Origin: Singulisphaera sp. GP187
GTDB taxonomy: Bacteria; Planctomycetota; Phycisphaerae; Phycisphaerales; SM1A02
Direction of reading: 5' to 3'
DNA length: 56,810 bases
Assembly: GCA_945888705.1 (NCBI GenBank)
Contig: CAMDAQ010000001.1
Coordinates: forward strand, 1-56,810
Shown piece by piece: positions 858 through 29,836 of the stretch (its first letter is position 1; each line of letters begins with the position of its first letter). The position numbers and the translations under genes were made by a program. The notes below the pieces were generated by a model. It saw only the letters and a program-made list of their open reading frames with translations, had not been told where the DNA came from and ran no database searches.

Positions 858-1697
858 TCATTCCGGACAGATGCCCCAGTTGCTCAGGAGAATGCCCAGG
901 TCGGCGCCGCCGACCGCGCCATCGCCATCGATGTCGCCAAGGCACGACGAGGGCGGCGGGGGGAGCATGGAGGAGTCAACAGTGAGGAAGCGCATCGATC
1001 CCGGCGCCCCCAGCGAGCTCTCGATCGTCTGCGCGACGACGCCGTTGTAGAGATCCTCGGAGCTGTTGTAGACGTTGACCCCGGTCACGACCGTGCTGCC
1101 TGTCGCTCCGGAGACGTTCGTTCGGTACCACTTGCCGTTGTACGCCCAGAACTTGCAGTCATGGGCCACGGTCTGGTTCGAGAAGCCACCGGCGTAGAAC
1201 GGCGTGTTGGCGACCAGTTCCGCGAAGTTGTTGTACGCGTACGCGCCGATGGTCACGGTGCTGTCGGCGACGTATCGCGTGGTGCGAAGGATCCGGCCGC
1301 TCGAACTGTCGACGGCGATGTCGTCGTCGTAGTACATGCCGTAGCCGTTCATGTAGAACGTCTCGCCATTCGAATTGGAGTTCAGGTCGTTGAAGCTCTT
1401 GTACCGGATGAACAGGTTGTTGTACTGGCCCGCATCGCCTGCCGCGTCCGAGGTGATCCTGTAGAAGAAGACGCCATCGGTGAACATCGCATCCTTCGAT
1501 GGAATCGCGGGAGCGATGTTCCCGCCGGCAAGGCCATCGGTATCCGTCGCCAAGGCCTGCAGCGATGCGTACTTGATCCACGACGTGTACGGCGTGAAGC
1601 CATCCGTCCGGAGGAACACTTCCTCGGCGGCAGCGGTTCCGGCGACGCCGCCGATGATGAGTGCGAAGGAGGCGAGCGCGGAGGACATTCGGTTCAT
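858..1697 (-). CDS. Secreted four-repeat surface protein with a single C-terminal dockerin-like repeat (paralogue family member 1)
   Basis: Signal peptide MNRMSSALASFALIIGGVAGTAAA; the start was set at Met-68 of the ORF-track ORF. Four internal repeats end in Y.S(F/L).(D)L..N (KYASLQALATD, RYKSFNDLNSN, YAYNNFAELVAN, VYNSSEDLYNG). The tail is GDIDGDGAVGGADLGILLSNWGICPE. Clearly homologous to the genes at 3865-4641 and 8025-8822. Confidence 0.8.
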   Translation of the reverse strand: MNRMSSALASFALIIGGVAGTAAAEEVFLRTDGFTPYTSWIKYASLQALATDTDGLAGGNIAPAIPSKDAMFTDGVFFYRITSDAAGDAGQYNNLFIRYKSFNDLNSNSNGETFYMNGYGMYYDDDIAVDSSSGRILRTTRYVADSTVTIGAYAYNNFAELVANTPFYAGGFSNQTVAHDCKFWAYNGKWYRTNVSGATGSTVVTGVNVYNSSEDLYNGVVAQTIESSLGAPGSMRFLTVDSSMLPPPPSSCLGDIDGDGAVGGADLGILLSNWGICPE

Positions 1698-1961
1698 GAG
1701 GAGGGGTCCTGTCAGTGTTGGTGGAGGCAGGCGTCGCAACGCCTGCTTGGCCATCGCCAGCGCACGATCGGGCCAACGGGACAGACCGTCGGCCTTTTCC
1801 ATGCAGAGCAAGGACTGTAGCCGCGAAACACGGCTGGGCAAGTTCGGGGAACGCAATCGATGCAACGTGCTGGCTGTCGCCCCCGGATGCAAGCGCACTG
1901 CAGCACGGTTGCAGAGCAGGTGATGAGGTCGATGCCTCGATCCCGGCGGTCCGGGCGCCCC

Positions 1962-3665
1962 TTACGGCGTGGTGCGCTGGTGCGTAAGCAGCCACGCGTA
2001 GACGTCGTGGCCTGCGGTCAGGTCGTAGGTCCGCGTCCAGGAATCGTGCCCGACTCCCGGATAGATGGTGAGTCGCGCATCAACCGCACTGGGCACGGAA
2101 CAGTTCTGCATGCCCGTGATGGGGACCGCCGAGCCCGCCACCGGAATGACTCCATCCGCATCGCCGTGGAAGGCCCAGATCGGATGGTTGCCCAAGAGGC
2201 ATCCGCGTTGGTCGAAGGCGCTGATGCCGTTCCCGCAGATGGGAATGAAGGCAGCCGGCAGCACATTCGATCCGACGGTGCGCAGGTATTCCCATGTACC
2301 GATGGCGCCGCAGCTGAGACCGGTGAGGTAGATGCGGGAGGGGTCCACGTTGTAGTTGGCGGCAGCCCACTGCAGGAAGGCGCTCACGTCAGCGGGACTG
2401 TGACAGCCCTGCGGCACGCCTGAACCGCCGTTGGAGTTCTGGGGAGAGAGAACGACGAAGGCATCTCCGGCGGCGGATGCGGCCACGGGCCAGGCATTCG
2501 CGGCGATGAGCTTCGCGGGACCATGGGCCGTGAGCCTGATCAACTCCGCTGACGAGCCATTGCCGTTCTCGCCGATGCCGTGCAGGCACACCAGAAGCGG
2601 CCAGTCCGTGCGAGTGGCGTAGCCCACGGGCAAGTACTCCCAGAAGCCCTGTTGCGCCGTGGTGGTTCCCTTGGGGCGCATTCGATGGCGATCCGATGAG
2701 ACCTGGGGTGTGCAGCCCGCGTCGCCCCATGCGCCAAGCACGGCCCCGAGGTCGCCGCCATCCACGGCTCCACTGTCGTCAACGTCGCCGGCACACGGCG
2801 AGGTCGGACATGGTCCCCAGCCCGCAAGCACACCCGACAGGTCAGTGCCATCGATGAGGCAGTCCCCGTTGATGTCGGCCGGGCTTCCGGGCGGACACTG
2901 CACGACGGCGTTGATCTGCAGTTCGCCGATGTACACGTCCTGGTCGACCGCGCCGTTGCGCGCCGCGAAGCCGAACGACCAACCGGTCGGGTCGATGTTC
3001 GCCATCGGCTGTGCACCTTGGTCGATGAAGATGGTGGAGCCGACGGTTCCAGGGAACGCCACCGAGACTCGAGTGCCCGTGGTGCGGGACCAATGGATCG
3101 TCGCAACGGCCATCCTGATCCTGTCCACGGCCTGCGTGGTGGTGACCCAGGTCACTGGCGCGAAGGACAGCGGGGTGAACGCAAACTGGCTTCCGCCCCA
3201 CTTGCCGTTGACGCCGTTGGCGCCTGCGCCGGTGTACGAGACGAAGCCGACGCTGAGCCCCGCCGCGTCATCGTTGAATCCTTGAAGGCCCCACTCGCCC
3301 CCGGACATGCGGTTGCCCGAGGCATTCGACAGGTCGCCCCAGAGAAACGAGAATCCGTCTCCCGCGCCACCGTTGCTGTTCCGCAGGCTGAAGCGGAAAC
3401 TCGCCGTGAACTCCTTCACGGTGCCGGCTACCGGCGCGGATCGCCATGTCCCCCACGTCGAGGGGAAGCCATCGCGGACCGGTCGGAGGCGGGTGAATCC
3501 ATTGAAGGTGAAGGTCTGGGCCTGACTGAACAAGGTGCCAGAGGGCGACGCGCCGAAGTTCTCCGCGATGGCCGCGGTGCACGGGGTGGATCCCTGCCCG
3601 AGACCTGCTGCGGTGATGGAGAGACCCAAGACGGTCGTGAGCAGGCGACGGAAGCGATCCAGCAT
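1962..3665 (-). CDS. Secreted L-type-lectin-like / dockerin / alpha-beta-hydrolase (esterase) fusion protein
   Basis: Start at MLDRFRRLLTTVLGLSITAAGLG (signal peptide). N-terminal FRFSL..SNGGAGDGFSFLWG resembles the legume-type lectin motif. Two internal dockerin-like repeats are present (ADINGDCLIDGTDLSGVLAGWGPC, GDVDDSGAVDGGDLGAVLGAWG). The C-terminal hydrolase has LVCLHGIGENG, the nucleophile elbow GLSCG, HGDADGVIP and GVGHDSW. Confidence 0.85.
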   Translation of the reverse strand: MLDRFRRLLTTVLGLSITAAGLGQGSTPCTAAIAENFGASPSGTLFSQAQTFTFNGFTRLRPVRDGFPSTWGTWRSAPVAGTVKEFTASFRFSLRNSNGGAGDGFSFLWGDLSNASGNRMSGGEWGLQGFNDDAAGLSVGFVSYTGAGANGVNGKWGGSQFAFTPLSFAPVTWVTTTQAVDRIRMAVATIHWSRTTGTRVSVAFPGTVGSTIFIDQGAQPMANIDPTGWSFGFAARNGAVDQDVYIGELQINAVVQCPPGSPADINGDCLIDGTDLSGVLAGWGPCPTSPCAGDVDDSGAVDGGDLGAVLGAWGDAGCTPQVSSDRHRMRPKGTTTAQQGFWEYLPVGYATRTDWPLLVCLHGIGENGNGSSAELIRLTAHGPAKLIAANAWPVAASAAGDAFVVLSPQNSNGGSGVPQGCHSPADVSAFLQWAAANYNVDPSRIYLTGLSCGAIGTWEYLRTVGSNVLPAAFIPICGNGISAFDQRGCLLGNHPIWAFHGDADGVIPVAGSAVPITGMQNCSVPSAVDARLTIYPGVGHDSWTRTYDLTAGHDVYAWLLTHQRTTP

Positions 3666-3793
3666 GGAACACTTGTAGCTGATCCGGGCGCCCATGCGCC
3701 ACGAATCAGGAAACATTGTCCCCAACGGGGCGCCTCAAGGCCTCAAGCATCCTGCGACCGGGTGGCTCACTCGCGACCTGCTCGACAACGACA

Positions 3794-3820
3794 GCGGGGT
3801 CGGCTCGAGGCCGACCCCGC
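3794..3820 (-). terminator. Perfect 11-bp hairpin downstream of the 3865-4641 gene
   Basis: GCGGGGTCGGC-tcgag-GCCGACCCCGC lies 45 nt past the stop codon (minus strand). It is followed on the minus strand by TGTCGTTGTCG. It is homologous to the inner stem of the hairpin at 7961-8008. Confidence 0.5.
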
Positions 3821-3864
3821 AGGGTGTGCATGGTGTGCAACGGTTCAGGCGCAGCGAGTTGCGC

Positions 3865-4641
3865 TCAGGCGCGACGGCGTCGAGAAGCGCTGACCCCGGC
3901 AACGGCCAGCAGTGCCATGGCACCCGGGGCGGGGATCAAGGACGAGTCGATCGTCATGAAGTTGACGTCGGCGCCGTAGCCCGCGGAACTGGCCACGGTG
4001 AGGAACGGGGTGTTGTTGTACAGGTCAGGGCCACTGGCGAAGACGCTGAAGCTCTGCACCACGCCGTTCACGACATCGGACCGCCAGCAGGTGCTGCCGG
4101 TGCCGGCCCAGTACCTGTTGTCGCCATTCTGATTTCCGCCACCGAAACCGTTGGCATAGAAGTACGAGTTGTTGACGAGATCCGCAGCGTTGTTGAACGC
4201 GTACATGCCGACATTGGCTGCAGAGTCGAAGGATGCCGTGCGGAAGAACCAGCCGTTGGTGGTGTTGGCGATCACGTCCTCGTTGTAGTACATGCCCTGC
4301 GTCATCTGGATGGCGAAGCCACCCGAGTCCGCATTCAGGTCCGCGAGCGAGTTGTAGCGGACGTACGTGTTGTTGTAGTTGAGCCCGCCGTCGTTCTTGG
4401 TGGTCTTGTAGACGTACGTGCCGTCCGTGAAGACCCCATCGGTGGACAGGATCGACGAGCTCGAGCCGACGTTGGTGCCGCCCGTGTTCGCCGCCATGTC
4501 TTCCAACGACGCATACGACGTCCAGACGGTGGAGGAACCAACGGTCGATGAGCGGACGTACAGGAGAGTTGCCTCGGAGGAGGCCGCGAGACCGGCTGCG
4601 AGAAGAGCCGCGCCGGTCATGGCGAAGTGCGACATGGTCAT
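3865..4641 (-). CDS. Four-repeat surface protein with PEP-CTERM-like anchor (paralogue family member 2)
   Basis: The real gene is only the 3' 777 nt of the 846-aa ORF-track ORF. It starts at MTMSHFAMTGAALLAAGLAASSEA (signal peptide). Repeats: SYASLEDMAAN, RYNSLADLNAD, YAFNNAADLVNN, FASGPDLYNN. The C-terminus is IPAPGAMALLAVAGVSASRRRRA (P..PG motif, hydrophobic helix, Arg cluster). Confidence 0.85.
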   Translation of the reverse strand: MTMSHFAMTGAALLAAGLAASSEATLLYVRSSTVGSSTVWTSYASLEDMAANTGGTNVGSSSSILSTDGVFTDGTYVYKTTKNDGGLNYNNTYVRYNSLADLNADSGGFAIQMTQGMYYNEDVIANTTNGWFFRTASFDSAANVGMYAFNNAADLVNNSYFYANGFGGGNQNGDNRYWAGTGSTCWRSDVVNGVVQSFSVFASGPDLYNNTPFLTVASSAGYGADVNFMTIDSSLIPAPGAMALLAVAGVSASRRRRA

Positions 4642-4908
4642 GATGTGGTCTGCCTTTGAGGGGAAAGGGAAGGGGGACGCGACCAACCTAGCCCCGTGCC
4701 GGGCTGGTTCCAACGAAATCAAGATAAAGCTGGAAGGTTGTTCCGCCCGTTGGGGGGACCTTGGTTCCGGCGCGGCGTGGTGGCTCGACCTGGGCCTCGT
4801 GGATAATGTCGTGGCATTTCTGGTTGGCGCGCTTGCGCCGCCCGGCTCGAGGATCACCTTGACATCCGCACCATGGCTCTGGCGGCCTTGGACTGCCACA
4901 AAGAACAG

Positions 4909-7203
4909 ATGAACACGACGACCCGATCGCTTCCGGCGGTAAGTCTCTCCCGGAGCTTGGCTTCCACGCTGCCACTCTTGGTGGCGCTGTCCAGGGCCCA
5001 CGCTGGATTCGACGTTCCCGTCGCGGTCGCACCGGGGTCGACCGCGACCATCACGCTCGCGATCACCGTCACCGACGGAGTTGACAGCGAGACCGATGTC
5101 GATTCGATCGTCGTGGCTGCCGACGGCAATGGCCGGTTCACGATCAGCCCCAACCAGCCGCCGCATGACGGGGCCGTGATCCAGGAAGGCCGGTTCGGGT
5201 TCGGTGGTGGCACCTTGCAGTACGACTTGTTCTGTTCCCCGGTCTTCGGCTGCATCCCCGTGACCGTGAACCTGGCCGGGCTCTCCGCAACGTTGGTGGC
5301 GCCGTCGCAGGCGACGATCCTCCCGTCCGGACGCGCGGATTTCGGGACCACCTGGCGCGTGCAGGGCAACTACACCATCACCAGCCCGCTCTCGTCCTCG
5401 GCGGGTGCGATCGACGTGAACTCGCTCTCGCCCTTTGGGGGAACGTTCTCCATCGGCGGCGGATTCATGCAGGTGTCGCAGCTGACGATCGGCGCCATCG
5501 ACAGTCAGACCACGGTCGATTCGCTGCCCGGGGTCACCTTCCTGCTTCGCACCGAGGTGGCGTTCGGCAGCACCACCATGAACGGAACCTATGCGCCGCC
5601 GCCGCCGAACGGCTGTGGCAGCGCGGGCAACTGTGGCCTGGAGCACCAGGGCCCCGGCTGCAACGACATTGCCTGCTGCTCCGCCGTGTGTTCCGCGGAT
5701 CCGTCGTGCTGCGCCTCGGACTGGGATGTGCTCTGCGTGAACCAGGCGGCGGCGCTCTGCGGCATCGCTCCCGAGAACGACAACTGCGCCGCGCCCAGGC
5801 CACTCTCCTTCGGCCGCTTCCCGTTCACCACCCGCAACTGCAACACCGACGGTGGATTCCTCATCACTGAGTGCCAGGATGTCCAGACGGCGGGAGCATT
5901 CACCAACGATGTGTGGTTCGTCTGCACCGCTCCGTTCGACAACGGCATCGCGGTGTCGACCTGCGGCCACGCGGGCTTCGATACCCGCATCGCCGTCTAC
6001 GACGCGTGCGGCGGCATGCTGCTCGCCTGCGGTGACGATGCAGTTGGCTGCTCCGGCGGAACAACGCGCGTTGCATTCCAGGGAATCGCCGGCCAGACGT
6101 ACCTGATCCGTGTGGGCGGGAAGAATGCATGGGGCGAGGGCGAGATCGATCTTGCGCTCACAGATGTCACGACGCCTTGGCCAACAACGGTTGCGGCCAC
6201 CTGGGCGGCATCGTCTGGTGGCAACGGCCATTCGTATGCGGTGCTCTCGTTCGCCTCGCCGACGAGCTTCGCGCAGGTCGCCGACCGGGCGACCGAGCTG
6301 GGTGGCTACCTCGCGACGATCACCAGTCCGGCAGAGCTTGCCTTCGTGCGCAGCGGCGTGCAGATCCCGCAGTTCGGTGGATCGACGGCCATCGGGCTCG
6401 TGCAAGGTCCGGGTGACGAGCCCGCCGGTGGCTGGGGATGGATCACCGGCGAGCCGCTGGTGTGGACGAACTGGAACATCGGCGAACCCAACGACGTCGG
6501 CGGTGAGGACTTCGCGAGCATCTACCCCGACGGAAGCTGGAACGACCAGGGTGAGCTCTTCCGCTACGCGCTGATCGAGTTCGATGCGCCACCTTCATTG
6601 CAGGAGTGGACCTGGAGCGAGGATCAAGGCGGTGCGGGGCAGCGATACCGGTCCGTGATCGCACCGATGTGGGTGAGCTGGGAACAGGCAGCCGCATCAG
6701 CCCAGGCGATCGGCGGCACGCTGGTGGTGCTCGAGACGCCTGCGGAGGCGGAAGTGGTCTTCCGTGAACTCGTGCAGTTCCCAGCGCTGTGGAGCATGAC
6801 CGCCTACAACGGTGGTCCGTGGGTCGGGCTGCGGAAGGACGTCGGGTCAGGCGCCTGGACGTGGCTCGGCGGCTCGTCGCTTGGGTGGAATCCCTGGAAC
6901 CCTGGTGAGCCAAGCGGCTTCGGCGATGCGGCGTGCTTCTTCTCGTTGCAGGATGGCCCAGGCATCGGGCTCGACGACACGTGGACCGGCAACCAGCGCA
7001 GGGGTTTCATCGTCGAGCTGCCGCCCAAGACCTCGTGCCCGGCCGACATCAATGGCGATGGTCAGGTGGGGGGCAGCGACCTTGCGCAGTTGCTGGGGGC
7101 GTGGGGTTCGTGCGGTTCATGCCCCATGGATCTCGACGGAGATGACATCGTGGCCGGTCCCGACTTGGCGATCCTGCTCGGCGGCTGGGGCTCCTGTCCC
7201 TGA
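4909..7203 (+). CDS. Large secreted protein: unknown N-terminal domain, Cys-rich module, PPC-like module, two C-type-lectin-like domains, C-terminal double dockerin-like module
   Basis: Signal peptide MNTTTRSLPAVSLSRSLASTLPLLVALSRAHA; an alternative ATG lies at 4873. CTLD 1 has GEPND (EPN at 6484-6492) and WND (6538-6546). The second CTLD-like copy has GEPSG...DDTW. The Cys-rich stretch is CNDIACCSAVCSADPSCCASDWDVLC. The tail is ADINGDGQVGGSDLAQLLGAWGSC...DLDGDDIVAGPDLAILLGGWGSCP. Confidence 0.85.
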   Translation: MNTTTRSLPAVSLSRSLASTLPLLVALSRAHAGFDVPVAVAPGSTATITLAITVTDGVDSETDVDSIVVAADGNGRFTISPNQPPHDGAVIQEGRFGFGGGTLQYDLFCSPVFGCIPVTVNLAGLSATLVAPSQATILPSGRADFGTTWRVQGNYTITSPLSSSAGAIDVNSLSPFGGTFSIGGGFMQVSQLTIGAIDSQTTVDSLPGVTFLLRTEVAFGSTTMNGTYAPPPPNGCGSAGNCGLEHQGPGCNDIACCSAVCSADPSCCASDWDVLCVNQAAALCGIAPENDNCAAPRPLSFGRFPFTTRNCNTDGGFLITECQDVQTAGAFTNDVWFVCTAPFDNGIAVSTCGHAGFDTRIAVYDACGGMLLACGDDAVGCSGGTTRVAFQGIAGQTYLIRVGGKNAWGEGEIDLALTDVTTPWPTTVAATWAASSGGNGHSYAVLSFASPTSFAQVADRATELGGYLATITSPAELAFVRSGVQIPQFGGSTAIGLVQGPGDEPAGGWGWITGEPLVWTNWNIGEPNDVGGEDFASIYPDGSWNDQGELFRYALIEFDAPPSLQEWTWSEDQGGAGQRYRSVIAPMWVSWEQAAASAQAIGGTLVVLETPAEAEVVFRELVQFPALWSMTAYNGGPWVGLRKDVGSGAWTWLGGSSLGWNPWNPGEPSGFGDAACFFSLQDGPGIGLDDTWTGNQRRGFIVELPPKTSCPADINGDGQVGGSDLAQLLGAWGSCGSCPMDLDGDDIVAGPDLAILLGGWGSCP

Positions 7204-7353
7204 GCGAGCCATCACCGCCGACGCAGTGCAGTGGCTCGGCATGGCACGGGCTTGGGATCGGTGCGTGGAAGCCGACGATGGGCGTCCTCTTCCCGCGCCG
7301 TGACGTGACGCAACGGTCCCAGCGGCAGGGTCTGACGCAGCTAGCCTTCGGCC

Positions 7354-7944
7354 ATGCCCACGCCGTCCGAACGATGCTGGTGGTGCGGGAGCGACTCGCT
7401 CTATGTGGCCTACCACGACACCGAGTGGGGTGTGCCGGTCACCGATGACCGAGCGCTCTATGGGAAGCTCGTGCTCGATGGGTTCCAGGCCGGCCTGTCG
7501 TGGCTGACGATCCTGCGCAAGCGCCCGGCATTCGAGCGCGCGTTCAGGGGCTTCGATCCTGAGCGGGTGGCGCGCTTCACGGAGCGCGACGTGCAGCGAC
7601 TTCTTGGCGATGCCGGCATCATCCGCTCGCGGGCGAAGATCGACGCCGCCATCGGCAATGCGCGGGCATGGATGACCGTGATGCAGGCAGGGGACGGGAG
7701 CTTCCGCGACCTGCTTTGGGAACACGTCGGGCACCGCACGATCGACCTGAAGCTGGCGAAGCCGGACGACATCCGCGCGCAGACACCGCAGAGCGAAGCG
7801 CTCGCCAAGGCGCTCAAGAAGCGGGGCTTCAAGTTCTGTGGCCCAGTGATCGTGCACGCCTTCATGCAGGCGGTCGGCATGTTCAACGAGCACCTGGTGA
7901 CGTGTCCACGTCATCGTGCGTGCGCGCGCCTGGCTCGGGGCTGA
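7354..7944 (+). CDS. tag: DNA-3-methyladenine glycosylase I
   Basis: RCWWCGSDSLYVAYHDTEWGVPVTDDRALYGKLVLDGFQAGLSWLTILRKR...FKFCGPVIVHAFMQAVGMFNEH matches the Tag family over its full length. Confidence 0.95.
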   Translation: MPTPSERCWWCGSDSLYVAYHDTEWGVPVTDDRALYGKLVLDGFQAGLSWLTILRKRPAFERAFRGFDPERVARFTERDVQRLLGDAGIIRSRAKIDAAIGNARAWMTVMQAGDGSFRDLLWEHVGHRTIDLKLAKPDDIRAQTPQSEALAKALKKRGFKFCGPVIVHAFMQAVGMFNEHLVTCPRHRACARLARG

Positions 7945-7960
7945 GTGCCTGTTGCAGCGC

Positions 7961-8008
7961 ATGCATGACAGCGGGGCCGGCGCCAGGCCGACCCCGCGGG
8001 TCATGCAT
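7961..8008. terminator. Long imperfect hairpin between convergent tag and the 8025-8822 gene
   Basis: Structure: ATGCATGAC-a-GCGGGGCCGGC-gccag-GCCGACCCCGC-gg-GTCATGCAT. The outer 9-bp stem is perfect and the inner 11-bp stem has one mismatch. The inner part is near-identical to the hairpin at 3794-3820. Confidence 0.5.
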
Positions 8009-8024
8009 CATCGAATGACGCGAG

Positions 8025-8822
8025 TCACTTGCGGCGACGCGCACCAACGAGCCCGGCAACGCCCAGCAGCGCGATCGCGCCGGGAGCGGGCACCGGGATG
8101 AAGATGTCCGTGGACGACCAGTTCGAGCTGCTGATGGTCTGCGCCACGTTGCGATTCAACAGGTCCTGGAAGCTGTTGTAGACGGCGAATCCGCTGACGC
8201 TCCCGTTGGGGCCGCCGGTGTTCGTTCGGTAGAACTTGCCCTCGAAGGCGAAGAACCGGTCGTTCCAGCCGTACGTCGTGCCGTATGCGGAGTACTGGCC
8301 ATTGGTGTTGGTCAGGAAGTCCTGGAACGAGGTGTACTTCGTCACGCCGTTGTTGCCGGTCGAGCTGGTGCCGTTGCGGTAGAAGTTGCCTTGACCGTCG
8401 GCCCACATGTCATCTTCTCGATCCCAGCCAGCCGTCGAGCCGAAACCCGAGAAGTCGAACACTTCGCCGCCAGTGTTCGCGCGCAGGTTCGCGAGCGGGT
8501 CGCTCGGCGAAGCGCTGTAGCGCACGATCTGGCTGATGCGCCCCTGCGAGTTGTAAAGGGTCTTGTAGATGTACGGGTCAGCCGTCTGGCCTTCGACGAA
8601 GTCGCCGAAGATCGACGTGTAGCGCGCATCGTTGATGGAGGGTGAGATGGCAGCAGAGAGGCCATTGCTCTGATTGGCGCCCAGCGCAGCAACGCTGGCG
8701 TAGCCCGTCAGCGTGGTGGCAGCGCCTGAGGCGTTGTTGGTGCGCCAGATACCGGTCAGGGCTGCATCAGCGGAGGCAGCCACGGCAAGCCCAAGGAGGG
8801 CTGTCGGGAGGAACAAACGCAT
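8025..8822 (-). CDS. Four-repeat surface protein with PEP-CTERM-like anchor (paralogue family member 3)
   Basis: Signal peptide MRLFLPTALLGLAVAASADA. Repeats: GYASVAALGAN, RYSASPSDPLANLRAN, KYTSFQDFLTN, VYNSFQDLLNRN. The tail is VPAPGAIALLGVAGLVGARRRK. Confidence 0.85.
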   Translation of the reverse strand: MRLFLPTALLGLAVAASADAALTGIWRTNNASGAATTLTGYASVAALGANQSNGLSAAISPSINDARYTSIFGDFVEGQTADPYIYKTLYNSQGRISQIVRYSASPSDPLANLRANTGGEVFDFSGFGSTAGWDREDDMWADGQGNFYRNGTSSTGNNGVTKYTSFQDFLTNTNGQYSAYGTTYGWNDRFFAFEGKFYRTNTGGPNGSVSGFAVYNSFQDLLNRNVAQTISSSNWSSTDIFIPVPAPGAIALLGVAGLVGARRRK

Positions 8823-9168: not shown

Positions 9169-9179
9169 GGAGTGAGGAG

Positions 9180-9254
9180 TCGGGCTGGCGGGATTTGAAC
9201 CCACGACCTTTTGACCCCCAGTCAAACGCGCTAGCCAAGCTGCGCTACAGCCCG
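9180..9254 (-). tRNA. tRNA-Pro (anticodon GGG)
   Basis: Hand-folded cloverleaf of 75 nt. Acceptor CGGGCTG/CAGCCCG, D stem GCGC/GCGC, anticodon stem TTTGA/TCAAA with loop CTGGGGG, T arm GTGGG-TTCAAAT-CCCGC, discriminator A. No encoded CCA. Confidence 0.9.
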
Positions 9255-10159: not shown

Positions 10160-10164
10160 GCCAA

Positions 10165-10251
10165 CGGACAGGGGGAGATTCGAACTCCCGATACGGTTAC
10201 CCGTATACAGCATTTCCAATGCTGCTCCTTCAACCGCTCGGACACCTGTCC
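10165..10251 (-). tRNA. tRNA-Ser (anticodon GGA)
   Basis: 87 nt. Acceptor GGACAGG/CCTGTCC, anticodon stem CAGCA/TGCTG with loop TTGGAAA, long variable arm TATACGGGTAACCGTATC, T arm GGGAG-TTCGAAT-CTCCC, discriminator G. Confidence 0.9.
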
Positions 10252-10275
10252 AAGGTGGGCCACTAGAGTAGCGGC

Positions 10276-10981: not shown

Positions 10982-12445
10982 TCAAAGCGTCCAGGACGAG
11001 AGCATCAGGCCCAGGTCGTTGCCATCGACGATGCCGTCATCGTTGATGTCGGCGATGGCCAGTGACGAACCCCACGCAGCCAGAAGGACGCCGAGGTCCG
11101 CCGCATTGACTGCACCGTCGCCGTTGGTGTCGGCCGGGAGGGCCGGCACCGGCGTGATCGTGAGGTTGGCGGTGTACAGCTGGAGGTCGTTGGTCGTGGT
11201 CACGGGGGCAACGCGCAGGTAGTAGGTGCCGGCGGTGGTGAACTCGTAGTTCGAGAGCACCTCGGCCTGTCCCACGGTGTTGACGTCCTGGGTCGTCAGG
11301 ATGGTCCCGGCGGAGTTCAGCACGTCGATCTTCAGATTGTGGATCGACGATGCCGTGATGCTGGTCCCGGTGTTGCACGCCTGGGTTTGCGGCCCAGCGG
11401 TGTACGTGCCGCCCTGCGGGATCACGGTGAGCGAGGCCTTGGTGCCTGCGGTGGCCACGATCTTCCAGAGGTCGACGTCGCTGTTGTCGTCGATCGAGAG
11501 GTTCGTGTAGCTGGTCAATCCCTCGGCGTTCGTTGGGATGGCCGCGTTGGCCAGCGCATCGGATGCTGCCTCGAGGTTGTCGCCGTACTGGCGCTGCGCA
11601 CCACGGATGTCGTCGATCTGCGGACCATCCACGTTGGTGAAGATGAAGGGCTCCATCAGCTTGACGGATGCCGCTGGGCACACGTGCGCCAAGCCGATGC
11701 CGTGGCCGTGCTCGTGGGCCACGATGTTGCGGAAGTAGCGGTAGTTGTTCGTGGTCGGCCCCCAGCCCGCATCGGAATTCAGGACCATGTCGCCGTTGTT
11801 GGGGAACTGGTTGTACGCCAGGATCGAGGTGCTGGTGAGACCGCGCCCGGCGATGCGCACGTCGCCGCGCGTGGCGCCGCCCGCGCTGCCCCACGCAGCC
11901 CCGTCATCGGTGACCTCGACGTACGACAATCCGGTCAGGTCGCTCCAGCGCTGGAAGACCTGGCGCAGCAGGTTCTTGCCGTTCTCGAGCGATCCGAAGC
12001 GGGCCGCGAGCGTGGCGTTCACGTTGTTCGGCGCGCTGCCGATGCCGAGCCCAACCTCGTCGGGGATCGTCACGCCATCGGGAACGATCGACCAGCGGAT
12101 CTGCACAGGCTGGCCCTGGGCGCTGCTGCCATTCAGGTTCCACCGAGGCTGCAGTTCGTAAGCAAGCCCGCCATCCATGCCACCATTGAGCCAGACGTTG
12201 ATCAGGCGCTGCGTCACCTGCGCGACGAATGCAGGATCGGCATCCTCGGTGAAGCACATCGAGATCGGCAGGCCCGCGGGCAGGTCAGCGCACTGGATGC
12301 CGTTGGCCTCGACGTGGTGGTTGCACCCCGCGCTGCACCCGTGCTCCGGCTGCGGCACGAAGGTCGGTACGGCGCTCAAGGCGGCGGCCATCGAACCTGC
12401 GAGCAGGGTGAACGCAACAGCAACCTTCGTGGGGCAGTTCTTCAT
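10982..12445 (-). CDS. Secreted metzincin (matrixin-like) zinc metalloprotease with PPC-like domain and double dockerin-like module
   Basis: Start at MKNCPTKVAVAFTLLAGSMAAALSA (signal peptide). Zinc site HEHGHGIGLAH (HExxHxxGxxH). C-terminus ADTNGDGAVNAADLGVLLAAWG...DINDDGIVDGNDLGLMLSSW. Confidence 0.9.
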   Translation of the reverse strand: MKNCPTKVAVAFTLLAGSMAAALSAVPTFVPQPEHGCSAGCNHHVEANGIQCADLPAGLPISMCFTEDADPAFVAQVTQRLINVWLNGGMDGGLAYELQPRWNLNGSSAQGQPVQIRWSIVPDGVTIPDEVGLGIGSAPNNVNATLAARFGSLENGKNLLRQVFQRWSDLTGLSYVEVTDDGAAWGSAGGATRGDVRIAGRGLTSTSILAYNQFPNNGDMVLNSDAGWGPTTNNYRYFRNIVAHEHGHGIGLAHVCPAASVKLMEPFIFTNVDGPQIDDIRGAQRQYGDNLEAASDALANAAIPTNAEGLTSYTNLSIDDNSDVDLWKIVATAGTKASLTVIPQGGTYTAGPQTQACNTGTSITASSIHNLKIDVLNSAGTILTTQDVNTVGQAEVLSNYEFTTAGTYYLRVAPVTTTNDLQLYTANLTITPVPALPADTNGDGAVNAADLGVLLAAWGSSLAIADINDDGIVDGNDLGLMLSSWTL

Positions 12446-12563
12446 GATGCAGGATGCTCCGTGGGGGCCCTGAACGGATTCAGGCACTTCTGAAACAGTA
12501 GCCCGATTGGGGGCCAAAGCGAGTCGCGGGACAGAAAGTTGGCCCAAACTCCGGATGGTCGAG

Positions 12564-13796
12564 TCAGCCATCCCGAGTCGGGAGCGACGCGACAGGGCCG
12601 TGGCGGTCCGGACTGAACCAGGTGTCATCGAAGGCACGTGGCGCTACGCGCTCAACCACGATTCGGCGCAGGAATCGACTGCCCTCGGGCCAGTCCGCGA
12701 CCACGGAGACCAGCTCGTTGGTCCGTGCGTCGGCCACCAGCCGCACGCGAGTCGGCAAAGGTGGTGCGCGCATGCCGCGACGACCTTTCCGGATCGATGG
12801 CCCCTCGCGTTCTTTGGGCTCGTCTTGGGGCATCTTCGGCCGGGCGGCGGCGGCCACCTCGGGTCGAAGCGTGGCCTCGATGACGACCAGTGGCTCGCCC
12901 TCGGCCGTGCGCGCCTGAGTGCCGGTCACGACCGTGAGATCGAATCCGCTCTCGAGTCGATCGAGCAGTGGCTGGAGCGTCAGCAGTTCCTCGTCATCGT
13001 TCTCGCTGTCCTGATCGCTCGGAGGACCGCCCATGAGCGGCATGGGATCGCGCATGCGCAGCGGATCCAAGCTGCGGGTCACGACGCCGGCGAGGTCAAT
13101 CTGCCAATACTCGGTGCCATCGAAGCCCCAGGCGATGGGTGGCGCGCCGTGACGATCCCCGAATCCGGGTCCATCAGGACCGCGAGGCATCGGTCCAGGG
13201 GGGGCCGCAGGGTCCGGGGCATCGGGGCTCGGTCGATCAGCGTGCTCCGGTCCACGTCGGCCACGACCTCCTGCCATCGGCGGTGGTCCCGGCTCGCCGC
13301 GCATGCCCGGTTGGCCGGTCCCCTTGCCCTGTCGGCCGCCGGCTTCGCCCGGTACGCGTGGCCCCAGCGGCAGGGCATCGAGATCGATGGCGAAGACGAA
13401 GCGGCGACCCGTTCCGACGTCGACCATCGCCTCCCGAAGGGACTCGGTGCCATCCCGGTTGGCGAGCACGATGGTCTGGCGATACGAGCGATTGCCGGTG
13501 GCGAGCCGGTTTGAGATCGACTGCAACGTGGCGTAGGCGGAGTTCGTTGCGGGGCCGATCGAGAGCACCACGGCGATCGTGAGCGTGGCGGCGAGCGCAC
13601 CCGCCGCAGCGAACCGTGCCACGCCGAATCGCCCCAGACGCGCGAGCACGCCTTCGCGGCGGTCGATCCGTGCGATCGCGGCACGGACCCGCCGATCCTG
13701 CTGCGCAGCGTGGTCCGCTGCGAGCGAAGCCAGCAGGCCGTGCACAAGCCGCTCGTCGGGGCCCGAGTCCCTGGTGTCGTCGTCATGCATCGTCAT
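12564..13796 (-). CDS. Putative anti-sigma factor (single-pass membrane protein, Pro/Gly-rich extracytoplasmic part)
   Basis: The ATG at 13796 overlaps the sigma-factor stop (ATGA). It has a short cytoplasmic N-terminus, the TM segment FAAAGALAATLTIAVVLSIG, and a C-terminal part of about 320 aa with a low-complexity Pro/Gly/Arg stretch. No zinc-binding HxxxCxxC motif. Confidence 0.65.
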   Translation of the reverse strand: MTMHDDDTRDSGPDERLVHGLLASLAADHAAQQDRRVRAAIARIDRREGVLARLGRFGVARFAAAGALAATLTIAVVLSIGPATNSAYATLQSISNRLATGNRSYRQTIVLANRDGTESLREAMVDVGTGRRFVFAIDLDALPLGPRVPGEAGGRQGKGTGQPGMRGEPGPPPMAGGRGRRGPEHADRPSPDAPDPAAPPGPMPRGPDGPGFGDRHGAPPIAWGFDGTEYWQIDLAGVVTRSLDPLRMRDPMPLMGGPPSDQDSENDDEELLTLQPLLDRLESGFDLTVVTGTQARTAEGEPLVVIEATLRPEVAAAARPKMPQDEPKEREGPSIRKGRRGMRAPPLPTRVRLVADARTNELVSVVADWPEGSRFLRRIVVERVAPRAFDDTWFSPDRHGPVASLPTRDG

Positions 13797-15570: not shown

Positions 15571-16283
15571 GCGCCGTGGCAACCAACCTGGCGATCGATG
15601 CCGCCGACGTGACCAAGGCGTACGGCAAGGGCGAGAATCGCGTGGTCGCGCTCGCTGGTGCCGATCTGCGCGTGCCCTACGGCGAGCTCGTGATGCTCGT
15701 CGGCCCATCGGGTTGCGGCAAGACCACGCTCATCTCGATCCTTGCCGGATTGCTCAGGCGCGACGGTGGCACATGCAGCGTGCTCGGCGTGGATCCGCAG
15801 GCCCTGCGCAACGGCCCGCGCACCGCGTGGCGTGGGCGCAACGTGGGCTTCGTCTTCCAGCAGTTCAACCTGGTGCCCACCGTGACGGCTCAGGAGAACG
15901 TGGCTATCCCGCTGCTGATCCAGGGCACGCCGCGCGCTGAAGCGATGGGCCGCGCGGGTGACATGCTCCGCAAGGTCGGTCTTGGCGGGCGCGAGCGCAG
16001 CCTGCCGCTGCAGATGTCCGGCGGCCAGCAGCAGCGCGTGGCGATCGCGCGTGCGCTCGCACCCAATCCGCGGCTGCTCGTGTGCGATGAGCCCACGAGC
16101 GCGCTCGATGGCGCCACCGGACAGAGCGTGATGGAACTGATCGCCCGCGTGGCACATGAGGATGGCCATGCGGTGGTGGTGATCACGCACGACGAACGCA
16201 TCTTCCGTTTCGCGAACCGCATCATCCACATGGACGATGGCCGTGTCACGCGCACCGATGTCCCACCGAAGGAGCACGCATGA
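15567..16283 (+). CDS. ABC transporter ATP-binding protein (MacB/LolD/DevA-like)
   Basis: Walker A GPSGCGKTT, Q-loop FQQFNL, signature MSGGQQQRVAIARAL, Walker B LLVCDEPTSALD, H-loop ITHD. Confidence 0.95.
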   Translation: MSAVATNLAIDAADVTKAYGKGENRVVALAGADLRVPYGELVMLVGPSGCGKTTLISILAGLLRRDGGTCSVLGVDPQALRNGPRTAWRGRNVGFVFQQFNLVPTVTAQENVAIPLLIQGTPRAEAMGRAGDMLRKVGLGGRERSLPLQMSGGQQQRVAIARALAPNPRLLVCDEPTSALDGATGQSVMELIARVAHEDGHAVVVITHDERIFRFANRIIHMDDGRVTRTDVPPKEHA

Positions 16284-17173
16284 ACCTGCGCACCATCGTC
16301 CTGCCCGTGTTGGCCGTTGCCGGCCTCGTTGCCACCGTGGCTGCCGTGAAGAAGATGGAGTTCCGCACGCTCGACGTGCCCGTTCCCGTGTCGCCTGCAC
16401 CAAGCCCGTTCGAGAGTCGCATCGCAGCCACGGGCCTGGTTGAGCCGCTGGGCGGCGTGACCTACGTCGATGCAGCCGATGCCGGCGTGGTCGGGCGCGT
16501 TGCGGTCGCCGAGGGCGATGCGGTCAAGGTCGGGGACATCCTCTGGGAACTCGACCACGCGCGCACGAGGGCGGAGCTCGGTCTGGCCGAGGCCGAGCGC
16601 GCGGTGGCGATGGCGCAACTCGTGGATGAAGAGGCTCGTCTCAAGGCCCTCATGGAAAGCGGCGCGGCCGAGGTCGTGCCGCAGGTCGAGCGCGTGGCCC
16701 GCGAACAGTCGGCCAAGGTGGCGGCAGCGCGGGTCCAGCGCTCGGACGCACAGGTCCAGGCAGCGCAAGCCCAGCTCCACCGCGAGACCGTGCGCAGCCC
16801 CATCGACGGCACGGTGCTCTTCGTCGATGTCCGCCCGGGTGAATACGCGCCGCCCGGTGGGCGTCGGCTGGCGATCGGATCGATCGATCCGATGCAGGTC
16901 CGTGTCGACATCGACGAGGTCGAATTCGCACGCTTTGCGCAGGGCGGCAAGGCCCAGGCGAGCCTTCGTGGCGTGCCCGGCAGCTCGCTGCCGCTCAAGT
17001 TCCTGCGCGTGGTGCCGCTGGTCCAGCCCAAGCGCACGCTGACCGGCGAGGCCGCCGAGCGCATCGACACCCGTGTGGTGCAGGTCATCTACGAACTCGG
17101 ACAGGGCACGCACCGCGTGCAGCCCGGGCAGGTCGTCGACGTCTACATCGAGGTCCCCGACAGCGTGCAGTGA
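16280..17173 (+). CDS. HlyD-family periplasmic adaptor (membrane fusion protein)
   Basis: ATGA overlap with the ATPase gene. N-terminal anchor LRTIVLPVLAVAGLVATVAAV, lipoyl-like motifs (VAEGDAVKVGDILWELD ... VRSPIDGTVLFVDVRPGE) and a coiled-coil segment between them. Confidence 0.85.
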   Translation: MNLRTIVLPVLAVAGLVATVAAVKKMEFRTLDVPVPVSPAPSPFESRIAATGLVEPLGGVTYVDAADAGVVGRVAVAEGDAVKVGDILWELDHARTRAELGLAEAERAVAMAQLVDEEARLKALMESGAAEVVPQVERVAREQSAKVAAARVQRSDAQVQAAQAQLHRETVRSPIDGTVLFVDVRPGEYAPPGGRRLAIGSIDPMQVRVDIDEVEFARFAQGGKAQASLRGVPGSSLPLKFLRVVPLVQPKRTLTGEAAERIDTRVVQVIYELGQGTHRVQPGQVVDVYIEVPDSVQ

Positions 17174-18606: not shown

Positions 18607-19161
18607 TCAGAATGGTAGAGGCAGGTCCGCCGCGCCAAGCACCGGTGCCGCGGCATCCTTGGGGGAAAGCAGCGCGCACGCGGCGTTGGGCCACGAAATG
18701 CCGATCGCCGGATCGTCCCACCGAATGCCACGCTCGGCACTGCGCGACCAAGCTGCGGTGACCTTGTAGACGACCTCGGTCAGCTCCTCGAGAGCCATGA
18801 GTCCGTGGGCGAATCCAGGCGGCACCCACAACTGCCGTTTGGCCACCGCATCAAGAGTGACCGAGACGGCTCGACCGAACGACGGACTGCCTCGGCGGAT
18901 GTCAACGACTGCGTGAAAGGACCGACCGCGCACGACGCGAATGAGCTTTCCTTGCGCGCTCGGGGGGAGCTGGTAGTGCAGTCCTCGGACCACGCCTCGT
19001 GCACTGAGGGAGTGGTTGTCCTGCACGAAGCGCACCGGGCTTCCCACCGCCGCGGCAAACGCCTCGTCGCTGTGCGTCTCCATGAACCAGCCTCGCTCGT
19101 CGTGGTGCACGCGCGGTTCGATCACGAGCACACCAGGGAGCTCAGTGGCCGTGGCGATCAT
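18607..19161 (-). CDS. rmlC: dTDP-4-dehydrorhamnose 3,5-epimerase
   Basis: [21 protein letters not shown]...[18 protein letters not shown]...[19 protein letters not shown]...[10 protein letters not shown] is the typical RmlC cupin. Confidence 0.95.
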
Positions 19162-20042
19162 CAGCGGGGCAGCTCCGCCGCGAGGCGAGTCAGGTAGCGC
19201 CCGTACTCGGTGTTGGCCATCGGCACGGCCAAACGCTCGAGCTCCACCCGATCGATCCAGCCCTGCCGGAAGGCGATTTCCTCAGGGCACGCGATCTTCA
19301 GTCCTTGGCGGCGCTCGAGGGTGGCGATGAACTGGCCTGCATCGAGGAGCGAGTCATGGGTGCCGGTATCGAGCCACGCGAAGCCCCGACCCATCACCTC
19401 GACCCGGAGCGTGCCGGCAGCGAGGTAGGCACGGTTGACATCGGTGATCTCGAGCTCGCCTCGTGCGCTGGGTCGAAGGCTGCGTGCGATGTCCACGACG
19501 GAGGCATCGTGGAAGTAAAGGCCCGTCACAGCAAGGTTGGACCGCGGAGCGGCGGGCTTTTCCTCGATCGACGCCGCGCGGCCATCAGGACCGAGCTCGA
19601 CCACGCCGTAGCGCCGCGGGTCGAGGACCGCGTGCGCCATCACAGTGGCGCCGTCGCTTGCCGCCGCTGCCCGTTGCAGCAGGCGCTGCAGGTCATGGCC
19701 GTGGAACAGATTGTCACCGAGCACCAGCGCGGAAGGATTCCCTCCCAGGAATCGCTCGCCGATCAGGAACGCCTGCGCGATTCCGGCGGGGTTCGGCTGC
19801 ACCGCGTACTGGATCGATAGTCCCCAGCGTGACCCATCACCCAGCAATCGCTCGAATCGGGGCGTGTCGTCCGGCGTCGAGATGACGAGGATCTCGCGAA
19901 TGCCCGCGAGCATCAGCGTGCTCAGCGGGTAGTAGATCATGGGCTTGTCATAGACCGGCAGCAGCTGCTTGCTCACGACCAGCGTGGCTGGGTGGAGCCG
20001 CGTTCCGGCACCACCGGCGAGCAGGATGCCGCGACGGCTCAT
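19161..20042 (-). CDS. rmlA: Glucose-1-phosphate thymidylyltransferase
   Basis: Start at [58 protein letters not shown] overlap with the rmlD stop. Confidence 0.95.
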
Positions 20043-20926
20043 GCGCCACCTCGGACGAGCGCGCGCACCGTCGCGTCCACGCCCACGGTCCACGATGGGC
20101 GCGCTGACGCGACGAGTGCATCGAGTCGACGACCATCGAGTCGCGAGTTCATGGGTCGCATGGCCTTCAGAGGGTAATCGGCTGATGGCACGGGCGTGAT
20201 GGCATCGGCCGTGCAGCGGAGGCGTGCTCCCAGCGCGGATGCCGTCCGCAGCGCGTGGCACGCGACCTCGTGCCATGACGCGTGGCCTGACGGGACGGCG
20301 TGCACGATCGAGGGCACGACGCCACCCCGAGCGAGCCGATCAGCCAGATCGACGATGGTGGCGGCCAGCCAACGAGCCTCGGTCGGCGCGCCGATCTGGT
20401 CGCTGACGACCCGCAGCGTGTCATGCTCCGCAGCAGCACCGAGGATGCTGCGCACGAAGTGACGTCCGGAGCCTCCATGAAGCCAACTCGTCCGCACGAT
20501 CATGGCATGCCCCGTCGTGAGGCACGCTCGCTCTCCCACGACTTTGCTCCGTCCATAGGCATTCAGCGGCGCCGGTTCGCTCTCCTCCGTCCATGGGCGA
20601 TCACCGCTCCCATCGAAAACGTAGTCCGTCGAGAGCTGCACCAGTCGCCCGCCGACTCGGCCGCATGCCTGCGCCGCTTCGGCGACGGCTTCGCCATTGA
20701 TGCGCGTGGCCAGCGCTTCAGACGACTCGGCACCATCGACGTTGGTCCAGGCGGCGGCGTTGATCACGACCGCGGGCCTGGTCCGCACGATCAGGTCAGC
20801 AACCTGCCCCGGGGACGCAAGGTCTGCCACTGTCCGGTCGGCAGCCGTCAGGCCCCACGCTGTCGGCGCAATGCGGCTGATCGCTGAGCCGAGTTGCCCG
20901 CGTGCCCCAAGCAGCAGCACCTTCAT
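20039..20926 (-). CDS. rmlD: dTDP-4-dehydrorhamnose reductase
   Basis: [13 protein letters not shown]...[13 protein letters not shown]...STDYVFDG...[13 protein letters not shown] overlaps at both ends. Confidence 0.9.
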
Positions 20927-21978
20927 GGGCCGTACTGCTCCCGGACCCACGACGCGTAGGCACCCGAGCGGATGCGTTCAAGCCACACCTCGTTCGCCAG
21001 GTACCAGCGGACCGTTTCGCGCAGGCCGTCCGTCAGGGAATGTCGTGGTACCCAGCCGAGTTCGTCGCGCGTGGAGGAGGCGTCGATGGCATACCGTCGG
21101 TCGTGTCCGGGACGATCCGTAACGAACCGGATGAGGCTCGCGTGGGGCGCGCCGGTGGGCCGTGCCTCGTCGAGTGCACCGCACAGCGACCGCACGAGAT
21201 CGATGTTGGCGCACTCCCCGTGACCGCCGACGAGGTAGGTCGACCCTGGAACACCGCGATCGAGCACGGCGCGCAGGGCCGTGCAGTGATCATCCACATG
21301 CAGCCAGTCGCGGACCTGGCACCCGTCGCCGTAGATCGGGATGGTCTCGCCGGCGGTGGCGCGCGCGATGCACAGTGGGATCAGCTTCTCCGGGAACTGG
21401 CGCGGGCCGTAGTTGTTGGAGCAGTGCGTCGTGATCGTCGGGAGCCCATGGGTGACGTGCCACGCCCGCACGAGATGGTCGGCTGCGGCCTTGCTCGCCG
21501 CGTACGGGCTGTTGGGGCGGTAGTGGCTGGCGCGGTGAAACGCTGGCTCGTCAGGGCCGAGCGATCCGAAGACCTCGTCAGTCGACACATGGACGAAGCG
21601 GAATCGACGGCGTTCGGCAGGGCTTCGATCGCTCAGGTGGTCGGTGCATGCCTGCAGCAGGCACGCGGTGCCACCCACATTCGTGGAGACGAATGCATCG
21701 GCGCCCTTGATGGATCGATCGACGTGCGTTTCCGCGGCGAAGTGCACCACGGCGCGTGGCTGGACCTCGTCCAGCAGATGGCGCACCGTCCCGGGATCGC
21801 GTACATCGCCGCGCACGAATCGGTGTGGCGCGGCTGCCGGCAGCGTTGCAAGATTGTCGAGATTCCCAGCGTAGGTCAGCAGGTCAAGCGTGACGATCGG
21901 CTCCGGCGACTGGGTGCACCACGCGTGCACGAAGGCACTGCCGATGAAGCCTGCTCCGCCAGTGACCAGAATTGGCAC
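20923..21978 (-). CDS. rmlB: dTDP-glucose 4,6-dehydratase
   Basis: MPILVTGGAGFIGSAFV...VHFAAETHVDRS...STDEVFG...SPYAASKAAADHLV...NNYGPRQFPEKLIP. Confidence 0.95.
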   Translation of the reverse strand: MPILVTGGAGFIGSAFVHAWCTQSPEPIVTLDLLTYAGNLDNLATLPAAAPHRFVRGDVRDPGTVRHLLDEVQPRAVVHFAAETHVDRSIKGADAFVSTNVGGTACLLQACTDHLSDRSPAERRRFRFVHVSTDEVFGSLGPDEPAFHRASHYRPNSPYAASKAAADHLVRAWHVTHGLPTITTHCSNNYGPRQFPEKLIPLCIARATAGETIPIYGDGCQVRDWLHVDDHCTALRAVLDRGVPGSTYLVGGHGECANIDLVRSLCGALDEARPTGAPHASLIRFVTDRPGHDRRYAIDASSTRDELGWVPRHSLTDGLRETVRWYLANEVWLERIRSGAYASWVREQYGP

Positions 21979-22041
21979 AGCAGGGAGCGTATGAGGAGCA
22001 CGATGACCCGATCACGGCCTCGCTGCCAGCGAGGCGGGCGA

Positions 22042-22380: not shown

Positions 22381-22406
22381 GGCGACAGAACGATACCCGC
22401 TGGTCA

Positions 22407-22443
22407 ATTTCCGGCAAATCGAGGTTGAGAAATTTCCGGAATT
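22407..22443. promoter_or_regulatory. Two TTTCCGG-centred palindrome-like sites upstream of the small dockerin gene
   Basis: ATTTCCGGcAAAT (22407-22419) and AATTTCCGGAATT (22431-22443), with a perfect TTCCGGAA core at 22434-22441. The direct spacing is 24 bp. They lie 27-63 nt upstream of the ATG at 22380 and are related to the sites at 39812 and 43277. Confidence 0.35.
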
Positions 22444-22446
22444 CCG

Positions 22447-29830: not shown

Positions 29831-29836
29831 CCACGC

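Follow-up and report, generated by a model that had tools for sequence, protein, structure and literature searches.

A single dockerin-type repeat takes the place of a PEP-CTERM-like tail in one lineage of a family of secreted, predicted propeller-like proteins of freshwater Phycisphaerae

Background

PEP-CTERM/exosortase protein sorting, which was reportedly described by Haft et al. in 2006 and is represented by the models TIGR02595 and PF07589, is among the described systems closest to the proteins reported here, along with type I dockerins (PF00404), small beta-propeller binding domains (e.g., Kelch, olfactomedin; four-bladed hemopexin is an analog in blade number) and the hypothetical "planctosome" of freshwater Phycisphaerae. 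Here, we describe three paralogous genes, A, B and C, in a stretch of DNA from Singulisphaera sp. GP187 (contig CAMDAQ010000001.1, positions 1 to 56,810; 56.8 kb, 66% GC; hereafter "the window"). Their secreted products share one type of body, which ends in a PEP-CTERM-like tail in B and C and in a single dockerin-type repeat in A.

Like PEP-CTERM proteins, B and C combine a signal peptide with a module at the extreme C-terminus in which P-x-P is followed by a hydrophobic helix and a group of basic residues; unlike them, they show the motif P-A-P-G-A instead of P-E-P, and one clade of their family lacks the sorting tail altogether. The repeat of A, on the other hand, resembles the F-hand unit of type I dockerins and of NCBIfam NF041540 ("GC-type dockerin domain-anchored protein", the name for the two-repeat form), i.e., D-x-[DN]-x-[DNS]-G-x-V-x3-D-L-x2-L-L-x2-W-G, and is likewise C-terminal and preceded by a proline-rich linker, but of the two repeats that define a dockerin A has a single one, and this repeat is closed by a pair of cysteines. 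To our knowledge, every described dockerin has two repeats. With Kelch and olfactomedin propellers the three bodies share an extracellular setting and, as predicted, repeated four-stranded blades; they differ from them in the number of repeats, which is four, and in a short helix that links strand 2 to strand 3. The planctosome was proposed to combine an anchor with Lamin-tail (LTD) and P domains and a cohesin-bearing adaptor in the Nemodlikiaceae / CL500-3 (Andrei et al. 2019; PMC6461901). Dockerin-bearing secreted proteins and an origin in lake metagenome-assembled genomes (MAGs; labeled Phycisphaerae, Phycisphaerales or Planctomycetota here) are common to that model and to our data; the model contains neither the propeller family nor PEP-CTERM tails or single-repeat dockerins. 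New relative to these known systems is thus an unnamed propeller-like PEP-CTERM family, one lineage of which carries a half dockerin.

Results

All three proteins start with a Sec-type signal peptide (by inspection), and their pairwise similarity is far above chance (A and B, 36% identity, E = 3e-39; A and C, 33% identity, E = 6e-16; B and C, 31% identity, E = 1e-14; BLASTP), by which measure A, B and C are a true paralogous family. A and B part at the same alignment column, right after DSS(M/L)(L/I)P, where A continues with PPPSS and CLGDIDGDGAVGGADLGILLSNWGIC; C is without the five-residue DSSxx stretch, yet joins its tail at the same proline. As aligned, the tail junctions are homologous positions.

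The tail of A is formed by a 12-residue EF/F-hand calcium loop of the pattern D-x-D-x-D-G-x-V-x-x-x-D (DIDGDGAVGGAD), which is followed by LGILLSNWG (AlphaFold2 [AF2] predicts a helix at residues 264-273), the repeat being bracketed by two cysteines (C-x2-D...W-G-x-C). The loop pattern, from which calcium binding is predicted only, is preserved in all 30 orthologous clusters described below. The tails of B (PAPGAMALLAVAGVSASRRRRA) and C (PAPGAIALLGVAGLVGARRRK), by comparison, consist of P-A-P-G-A, approx. 13 hydrophobic residues (AMALLAVAGVSAS in B, AIALLGVAGLVGA in C) and a terminal RRRR (B) or RRRK (C); in C, residues 250-264 are predicted to form a helix (AF2).

A profile search of 5.8 billion proteins retrieved 121 homologs, all from metagenomes or MAGs and nearly all 245-282 amino acids (aa) in length, none of which has a Pfam domain; when 1.84 billion cluster representatives were searched exhaustively with HMMER, no more than 38 clusters (at 50% identity) were retrieved. 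The family is composed of lineage-restricted small secreted proteins of freshwater Phycisphaerae. Among the 120 homologs listed, 30 carry a dockerin tail, 89 a PAPG-type tail and one is truncated. Each of the 30 dockerin-tailed members (clusters at 90% identity) is 56-99% identical to A and has exactly one cysteine-bracketed repeat behind a linker of 3-8 residues; public data include a protein 99% identical to A, and members of the B clade that are 258-260 aa long. By this conservation the dockerin-tailed A proteins are an orthologous group, and a pseudogene or frameshift product as the origin of A is ruled out because 30 orthologous clusters have been conserved with one repeat each. Body cysteines, not counting those of the bracket, average 2.8 in dockerin-tailed members as compared to 0.3 in PAPG-tailed members.

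In a neighbor-joining tree of the bodies (200 bootstraps), the lineages of A and B are sisters. The dockerin-tailed members formed a single clade in none of the bootstraps (0/200); one of them (P0137) is sister to the PAPG-tailed P0148 within the B lineage (183/200), and the group of B, P0137 and P0148 was found in 193/200. P0137 and P0148 are encoded on contigs of approx. 1 kb. As P0137 nests in the B lineage and uses the same junction as A (...IDSSLV-GAPPPPAT-CPGDIDG...), at least two tail exchanges at one and the same position are indicated by this tree. The swap is real, conserved and, by the tree, recurrent, and it may bear on surface retention.

The C-terminal ends found across the family comprise canonical VPEP-type PEP-CTERM tails, PAPGA tails, VPEID-like tails, a type IX secretion system (T9SS) sorting domain (in a 1175-aa distant homolog) and the dockerin repeat; several giant proteins hold the body domain internally. 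Four distant homologs exceed the TIGR02595 cut-off of 16 bits (P0125, 16.2; P0140, 25.9; P0141, 23.0; P0152, 17.0), and P0140 is also above the PF07589 cut-off. Their canonical VPEP tails occupy the same position as the PAPGA tails of closer relatives. Because distant members carry these tails, the family as a whole is, judged by its C-termini, a PEP-CTERM family at its root, with the body as a portable extracellular module, and the tails of B and C probably represent a lineage-specific PEP-CTERM variant. Four further distant homologs (P0146, P0149, P0151, P0153) present a third type of tail on the same body, VPEIDPAG(M/I/V)GS(V/I)LAL...GLLERRR, which matched no NCBIfam model at E ≤ 0.1.

A PAPGA tail is also found outside the family. 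An unrelated secreted protein of 217 aa near the end of the window, which has no Pfam domain, ends in the same type of tail (PAPGAMALLGLAGLAGRRRR), for which MYXO-CTERM and GC_trans_RRR models score similarly to PEP-CTERM. This protein has 399 homologs, mostly from Planctomycetota metagenomes; 118 of the 120 listed keep the PAPG tail and none of these 120 has a dockerin tail. Since an unrelated family retains PAPG so consistently, the PAPGA variant looks like the standard sorting tail of the lineage. Tail swapping as a general habit of this organism, on the other hand, is ruled out by the same 120 homologs, among which no swap is seen.

A scan of GTDB species genomes with the B-clade alignment identified 19 loci, which, apart from a few implausible bin labels, come from lake MAGs with the labels given above (Loclat, Erken, Tanganyika, Mendota). 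Contig CAIYOC010000197.1 (Loclat_bin-16982) is 98-99% identical to the window across the locus. The implausible titles (L001, L009-L011, L016 and L018: Bacteroidia, Chitinophaga pinensis, Candidatus Kuenenia or Phycisphaera mikurensis) probably reflect mistakes made in binning or naming the source records. A lies approx. 0.3-3 kb from B in all 14 loci with sufficient flank, and an esterase with internal dockerin repeats occurs near A and B in every locus long enough, in varying order and orientation. A, B and the dockerin-bearing esterase are thus a conserved linkage across genomes. C is adjacent in the closest relatives only, and a 776-aa lectin-domain protein encoded between B and C is syntenic in the closest relatives L001, L002, L004 and L006. 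One Phycisphaeraceae MAG contig (L007) has tandem B-type copies (at 203-958 and 1219-1977; approx. 68-70% identical to B), whereas its 2.4 kb do not include a copy of A.

As dockerin-tailed A and PEP-CTERM-tailed B are conserved neighbors in the same genomes, these data suggest that the two tails give different, complementary locations rather than being interchangeable anchors. The initial annotation of this DNA had proposed that the dockerin-like module is a functional alternative to exosortase-type sorting for surface retention, which the pairing of A and B in 14 loci does not support. Its query whether the family has alternative anchors elsewhere can be answered in the affirmative, given the several tail types among the homologs.

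The body consists of four repeats of approx. 55 aa each in A, B and C. Similarity among repeats within single sequences is weak (z = -0.7 to 2.6; single-sequence scoring, not significant). We therefore compared the repeats as profiles, by splitting a 114-sequence family alignment into four blocks (hhalign); repeats 2 and 3 (95% probability, 2e-8), 3 and 4 (96%, 9e-9) and 1 and 2 (88%, 3.5e-6) matched, and the remaining pairs reached 34-62% probability. AF2 models, computed with the family alignment, of A (predicted local distance difference test [pLDDT] 83.3, predicted template modeling score [pTM] 0.77) and C (pLDDT 84.1, pTM 0.81) both show four units of strand-strand-short helix-strand-strand, with pLDDT > 90 across most of the body and < 50 for residues 1-22 of A; the recurring motif Y-x-S-(F/L)-x-D-L-x-x-N corresponds to the end of strand 2 and the short helix of each repeat. 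The best Foldseek matches of both models are all beta-propellers (Kelch, designed SAKe, olfactomedin, GH43; probability ~1.0), with no hemopexin chain among the top 50. None of the three bodies had a match in Pfam or NCBIfam at E ≤ 1, and a comparison of the family profile to PDB sequences gave only noise (EF-G, E about 2). The body is thus predicted to be a four-bladed beta-propeller-like domain without a close solved relative.

Overall, the description in the initial annotation of three homologous secreted proteins, with fourfold internal repeats of a domain that it could not name, PAPGA...RRRR or RRRK endings in B and C and one dockerin-like EF-hand repeat in A, agrees with the open reading frames (ORFs), translations and pairwise comparisons, with the repeat profiles and models, with the lack of any Pfam, NCBIfam or PDB sequence match and with the single repeat of A and all its orthologous clusters. 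The DSS(M/L)(L/I)P junction that it called conserved is exact for A and B; for C, only the proline is shared.

Dockerin-type repeats occur in seven flagged ORFs of the window including A, and in the six others the A-type unit is paired and either ends or interrupts the protein. In this paired form it is recognized by Pfam Dockerin_1 (PF00404; 24.7 bits, cut-off 22.9) and by NF041540 dockerin_GC (31.1 and 30.5 bits, cut-off 29). The cysteine brackets of the two-repeat modules vary, with a pair for each repeat in some proteins and one pair around the whole module in others. Single-repeat C-terminal dockerins were found only in the family of A, B and C, while two repeats are present in the other dockerin proteins of the window and of the fetched loci. 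The M10 protease of the window shows, ahead of its tail (aa 419-498), weak likeness to the body of "FxDxF family PEP-CTERM proteins" (NF038126, E = 5e-4), and may by this match be another PEP-CTERM-family domain that now bears a dockerin. Literature searches found no work on dockerins together with PEP-CTERM in Planctomycetes, on "GC-type dockerin" or on "single F-hand".

A possible link between the A-type body and a planctosome-like scaffold comes from another lineage. The 2753-aa homolog P0124 (locus L021, 2785-11046) has Lamin-tail (LTD), P_proprotein, MopE and TSP_3 domains, and an internal segment of it is an A-type body (54% identical to A over 211 aa). Its neighbors encode a 511-aa Cohesin(weak)+HYR protein (933-2468) and a 254-aa protein (11-775) with a two-repeat dockerin at its end and an N-terminal portion that looks cohesin-like by eye. 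This arrangement (LTD, P-domain and TSP3 in one protein, with a Cohesin+HYR gene beside it) resembles the planctosome model (PMC6461901). The occurrence of this type of body as a separate, dockerin-tailed protein in one lineage and as part of a scaffold in another would be classical fusion evidence for association, here from a single case.

Table 1. Positions of the A, B and C genes, their parts and other features in the window
Feature	Position	Strand	Description	Basis
Gene A	858-1697	minus	279-aa secreted protein, four-repeat and predicted propeller-like, single dockerin-type repeat at end	ORF and translation
A, signal peptide (aa 1-24)	1626-1697	minus	MNRMSSALASFALIIGGVAGTAAA; basic N-region, hydrophobic core, A-A-A cleavage-type end	Inspection
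A, body	960-1625	minus	Four repeats (aa 25-76, 77-134, 135-188, 189-246), ending in DSSMLP	
A, linker	945-959	minus	Proline-rich, PPPSS	
A, tail (aa 252-277)	867-944	minus	One Cys-bracketed F-hand (dockerin-type) repeat	EF-loop consensus match
Gene B	3865-4641	minus	258-aa paralog with PEP-CTERM-like tail	ORF and BLASTP
B, tail (aa 237-258)	3868-3933	minus	P-x-P, hydrophobic helix, basic cluster	
Gene C	8025-8822	minus	265-aa paralog with PEP-CTERM-like tail	ORF and BLASTP
C, tail (aa 245-265)	8028-8090	minus	PEP-CTERM-like	Sub-cut-off PF07589 and TIGR02595 scores
Esterase	1962-3725	minus	587 aa, secreted; PHA-depolymerase / S9-like	Sub-threshold match
Esterase, two internal dockerin repeats (aa 284-334)	2724-2876	minus	Between ~280-aa N-terminal domain and catalytic domain	
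Lectin-domain protein	4873-7203	plus	776 aa; C-type lectin and galactose-binding-like domains; two terminal Cys-bracketed dockerin repeats at 7045-7191	
M10 metalloprotease	10982-12637	minus	Matrixin-like; two-repeat dockerin end	
Two large PA14-domain proteins	39829-41994 and 43358-47005	plus	Two-repeat dockerin ends; one also laminin-G / concanavalin-like	
Dockerin-type repeat ORF	22042-22446			
Second PAPGA-tailed protein	54292-54945	plus	217 aa, secreted	
Glycan/exopolysaccharide cluster	~19161-38899		Nucleotidyl transferase, NAD-dependent dehydratase/epimerase, at least six GT2 and one GT4 glycosyltransferases, sulfotransferase, methyltransferase, ABC exporter	
Glycan cluster, membrane proteins	23576-25345 and 25989-28874		Two large multi-pass proteins with TPR repeats	
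tRNA-Pro(GGG)	9179-9254	minus	Between C and truB	Above Rfam gathering threshold
tRNA-Ser(GGA)	10164-10252	minus	Between C and truB	Not confirmed at Rfam gathering threshold
OLD-family nuclease-like protein	55024-56649	minus	DUF2813, OLD-like TOPRIM and AAA ATPase; type common in anti-phage defense systems	

Among the other features of the window (Table 1), the glycan/exopolysaccharide cluster is of a locus type that usually accompanies PEP-CTERM systems; no exosortase is present in it. Several high-GC ORFs (13079-13786, 15890-17113) were rejected as genes, as they match no family and seem to be reading frames on the wrong strand.

Discussion

We favor a reading in which B and C are sorted to the cell envelope, A is docked on a scaffold through a half dockerin and the propeller is a binding module; taken as a whole, we regard it as modestly probable. 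B and C, with PAPGA, a membrane helix and arginines, would be cleaved and fixed to the cell envelope, probably by an exosortase-type enzyme. The A lineage would have arisen as a tandem paralog of B in which a proline linker and one disulfide-closed calcium-loop and helix unit took over from the sorting tail at the shared junction. A would then probably be attached to a planctosome-type scaffold that bears cohesins, non-covalently and in a calcium-dependent manner; in another lineage, an A-type body forms part of such a scaffold protein itself. The propeller would most likely be a ligand-binding (lectin-like) module, and would be presented twice, i.e., at the envelope by B and C and in a docked enzyme complex by A, beside the dockerin-bearing esterase.

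Several observations weigh against this reading, and the first of these concern the partners that it calls for. Both an exosortase and a cohesin are assumed, as neither is encoded in the window or the fetched flanks: among the approx. 50 window ORFs scanned no exosortase was found, nor was one detected in the fetched flanks (BLAST), and the cohesin family was not matched in these ORFs (Pfam). With two cohesin-like regions as queries, tBLASTn likewise gave no match in the window or any fetched locus, although this is a weak test as cohesins diverge fast. Nor was the scaffold of the planctosome model detected in the window, and the fused protein is known from one contig, of a different lineage, that has 59% GC as compared to 66% in the window.

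Other points concern the modules themselves. The 26-residue tail of A alone matches no dockerin HMM (hidden Markov model) of Pfam or NCBIfam even at E ≤ 10; with one repeat only, in A as in 30/30 dockerin-tailed clusters, it fails the two-repeat definition of a dockerin; and its AF2 confidence is only pLDDT 60-76. The tail of C is below the cut-offs of both PEP-CTERM models (14.2 vs. 16 for TIGR02595; 15.7 vs. 20.7 for PF07589), that of B matches only MYXO-CTERM-like models, weakly, with no PEP-CTERM match, and PAPGA tails score about equally against MYXO-CTERM-type models. TM-scores of the A and C models to solved propellers are low (0.25-0.42; Foldseek), and nothing in the evidence indicates a ligand for the body. 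Finally, the only tree behind the recurrence of the swap is a neighbor-joining tree, in which a key sequence, P0148, has an internal deletion.

EF/F-hands normally function as pairs, and the lone F-hand of A might therefore be a calcium-dependent pairing module, which would join with a second A or another single repeat to yield bivalent propellers, with no scaffold anchoring involved. Such a role would fit the occurrence of exactly one repeat in 30/30 orthologous clusters as compared to two in the other dockerin-tailed proteins of the window and the fetched loci, as well as the lack of a cohesin in the window or flanks. However, the A-type body fused in a scaffold beside a cohesin gene points to scaffold association, and no further single-repeat protein that could be a partner was seen in the window or fetched loci; we thus consider pairing unlikely.

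We also considered that A may be soluble, in the medium or the polysaccharide layer, with loop and disulfide merely stabilizing it, while B and C are tethered, so that ligands would be handed over from shuttle to receptor. A and B are conserved neighbors with approx. 36% identity, as might be expected for sub-functionalized partners, and the higher number of body cysteines in the dockerin-tailed clade would suit an exposed extracellular life. On the other hand, the unit in the tail of A also makes up, in pairs, the dockerins of many enzymes of this organism, the paired domain is an anchor according to NCBIfam, and nothing in the evidence indicates an interaction between the paralogs, which makes this explanation quite improbable. 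That PAPGA-helix-RRR is a plain membrane anchor or the substrate of another, MYXO-CTERM-type enzyme, so that the swap would exchange a membrane anchor for a docking module, appears very improbable: all relatives of A, B and C have Ala or Thr where the PEP motif has Glu, the PEP-CTERM scores are below cut-off with similar MYXO-CTERM / GC_trans_RRR scores and no exosortase is found in the window, but the VPEP tails of distant homologs pass TIGR02595 at the same position, the NCBI pipeline names a PAPG member (P0107) [quoted passage not shown], and the conserved Cys that MYXO-CTERM tails have is absent here.

The favored combination of envelope-sorted B and C with a scaffold-docked A can be extended to a broader proposal, which we regard as possible but doubtful: the cysteine-bracketed F-hand would be an autonomous "half-dockerin", and the surface proteome of freshwater Phycisphaerae would be split between covalent exosortase sorting and calcium-dependent cohesin docking, with swaps of 25-35-residue tails at a fixed junction switching proteins from one route to the other.

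Conclusions

The family described here bears on how proteins are placed on the unusual planctomycete surface, and on exosortase sorting and non-cellulosomal dockerins. The A, B and C bodies define an extracellular, propeller-like domain family without a name, and this family represents a natural experiment, in which one small, confidently modeled body carries either a PEP-CTERM-type tail or a half dockerin at one junction, side by side in abundant lake bacteria, and is in one case fused into a giant scaffold associated with a cohesin. It thus gives defined constructs with which to ask whether a single F-hand is sufficient for docking, whether PAPGA is an exosortase signal and whether the planctosome is real. 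If the half-dockerin reading is true, the A/B pair and the LTD-fused A-type domain would be the first concrete, testable subunit of the hypothetical planctosome.

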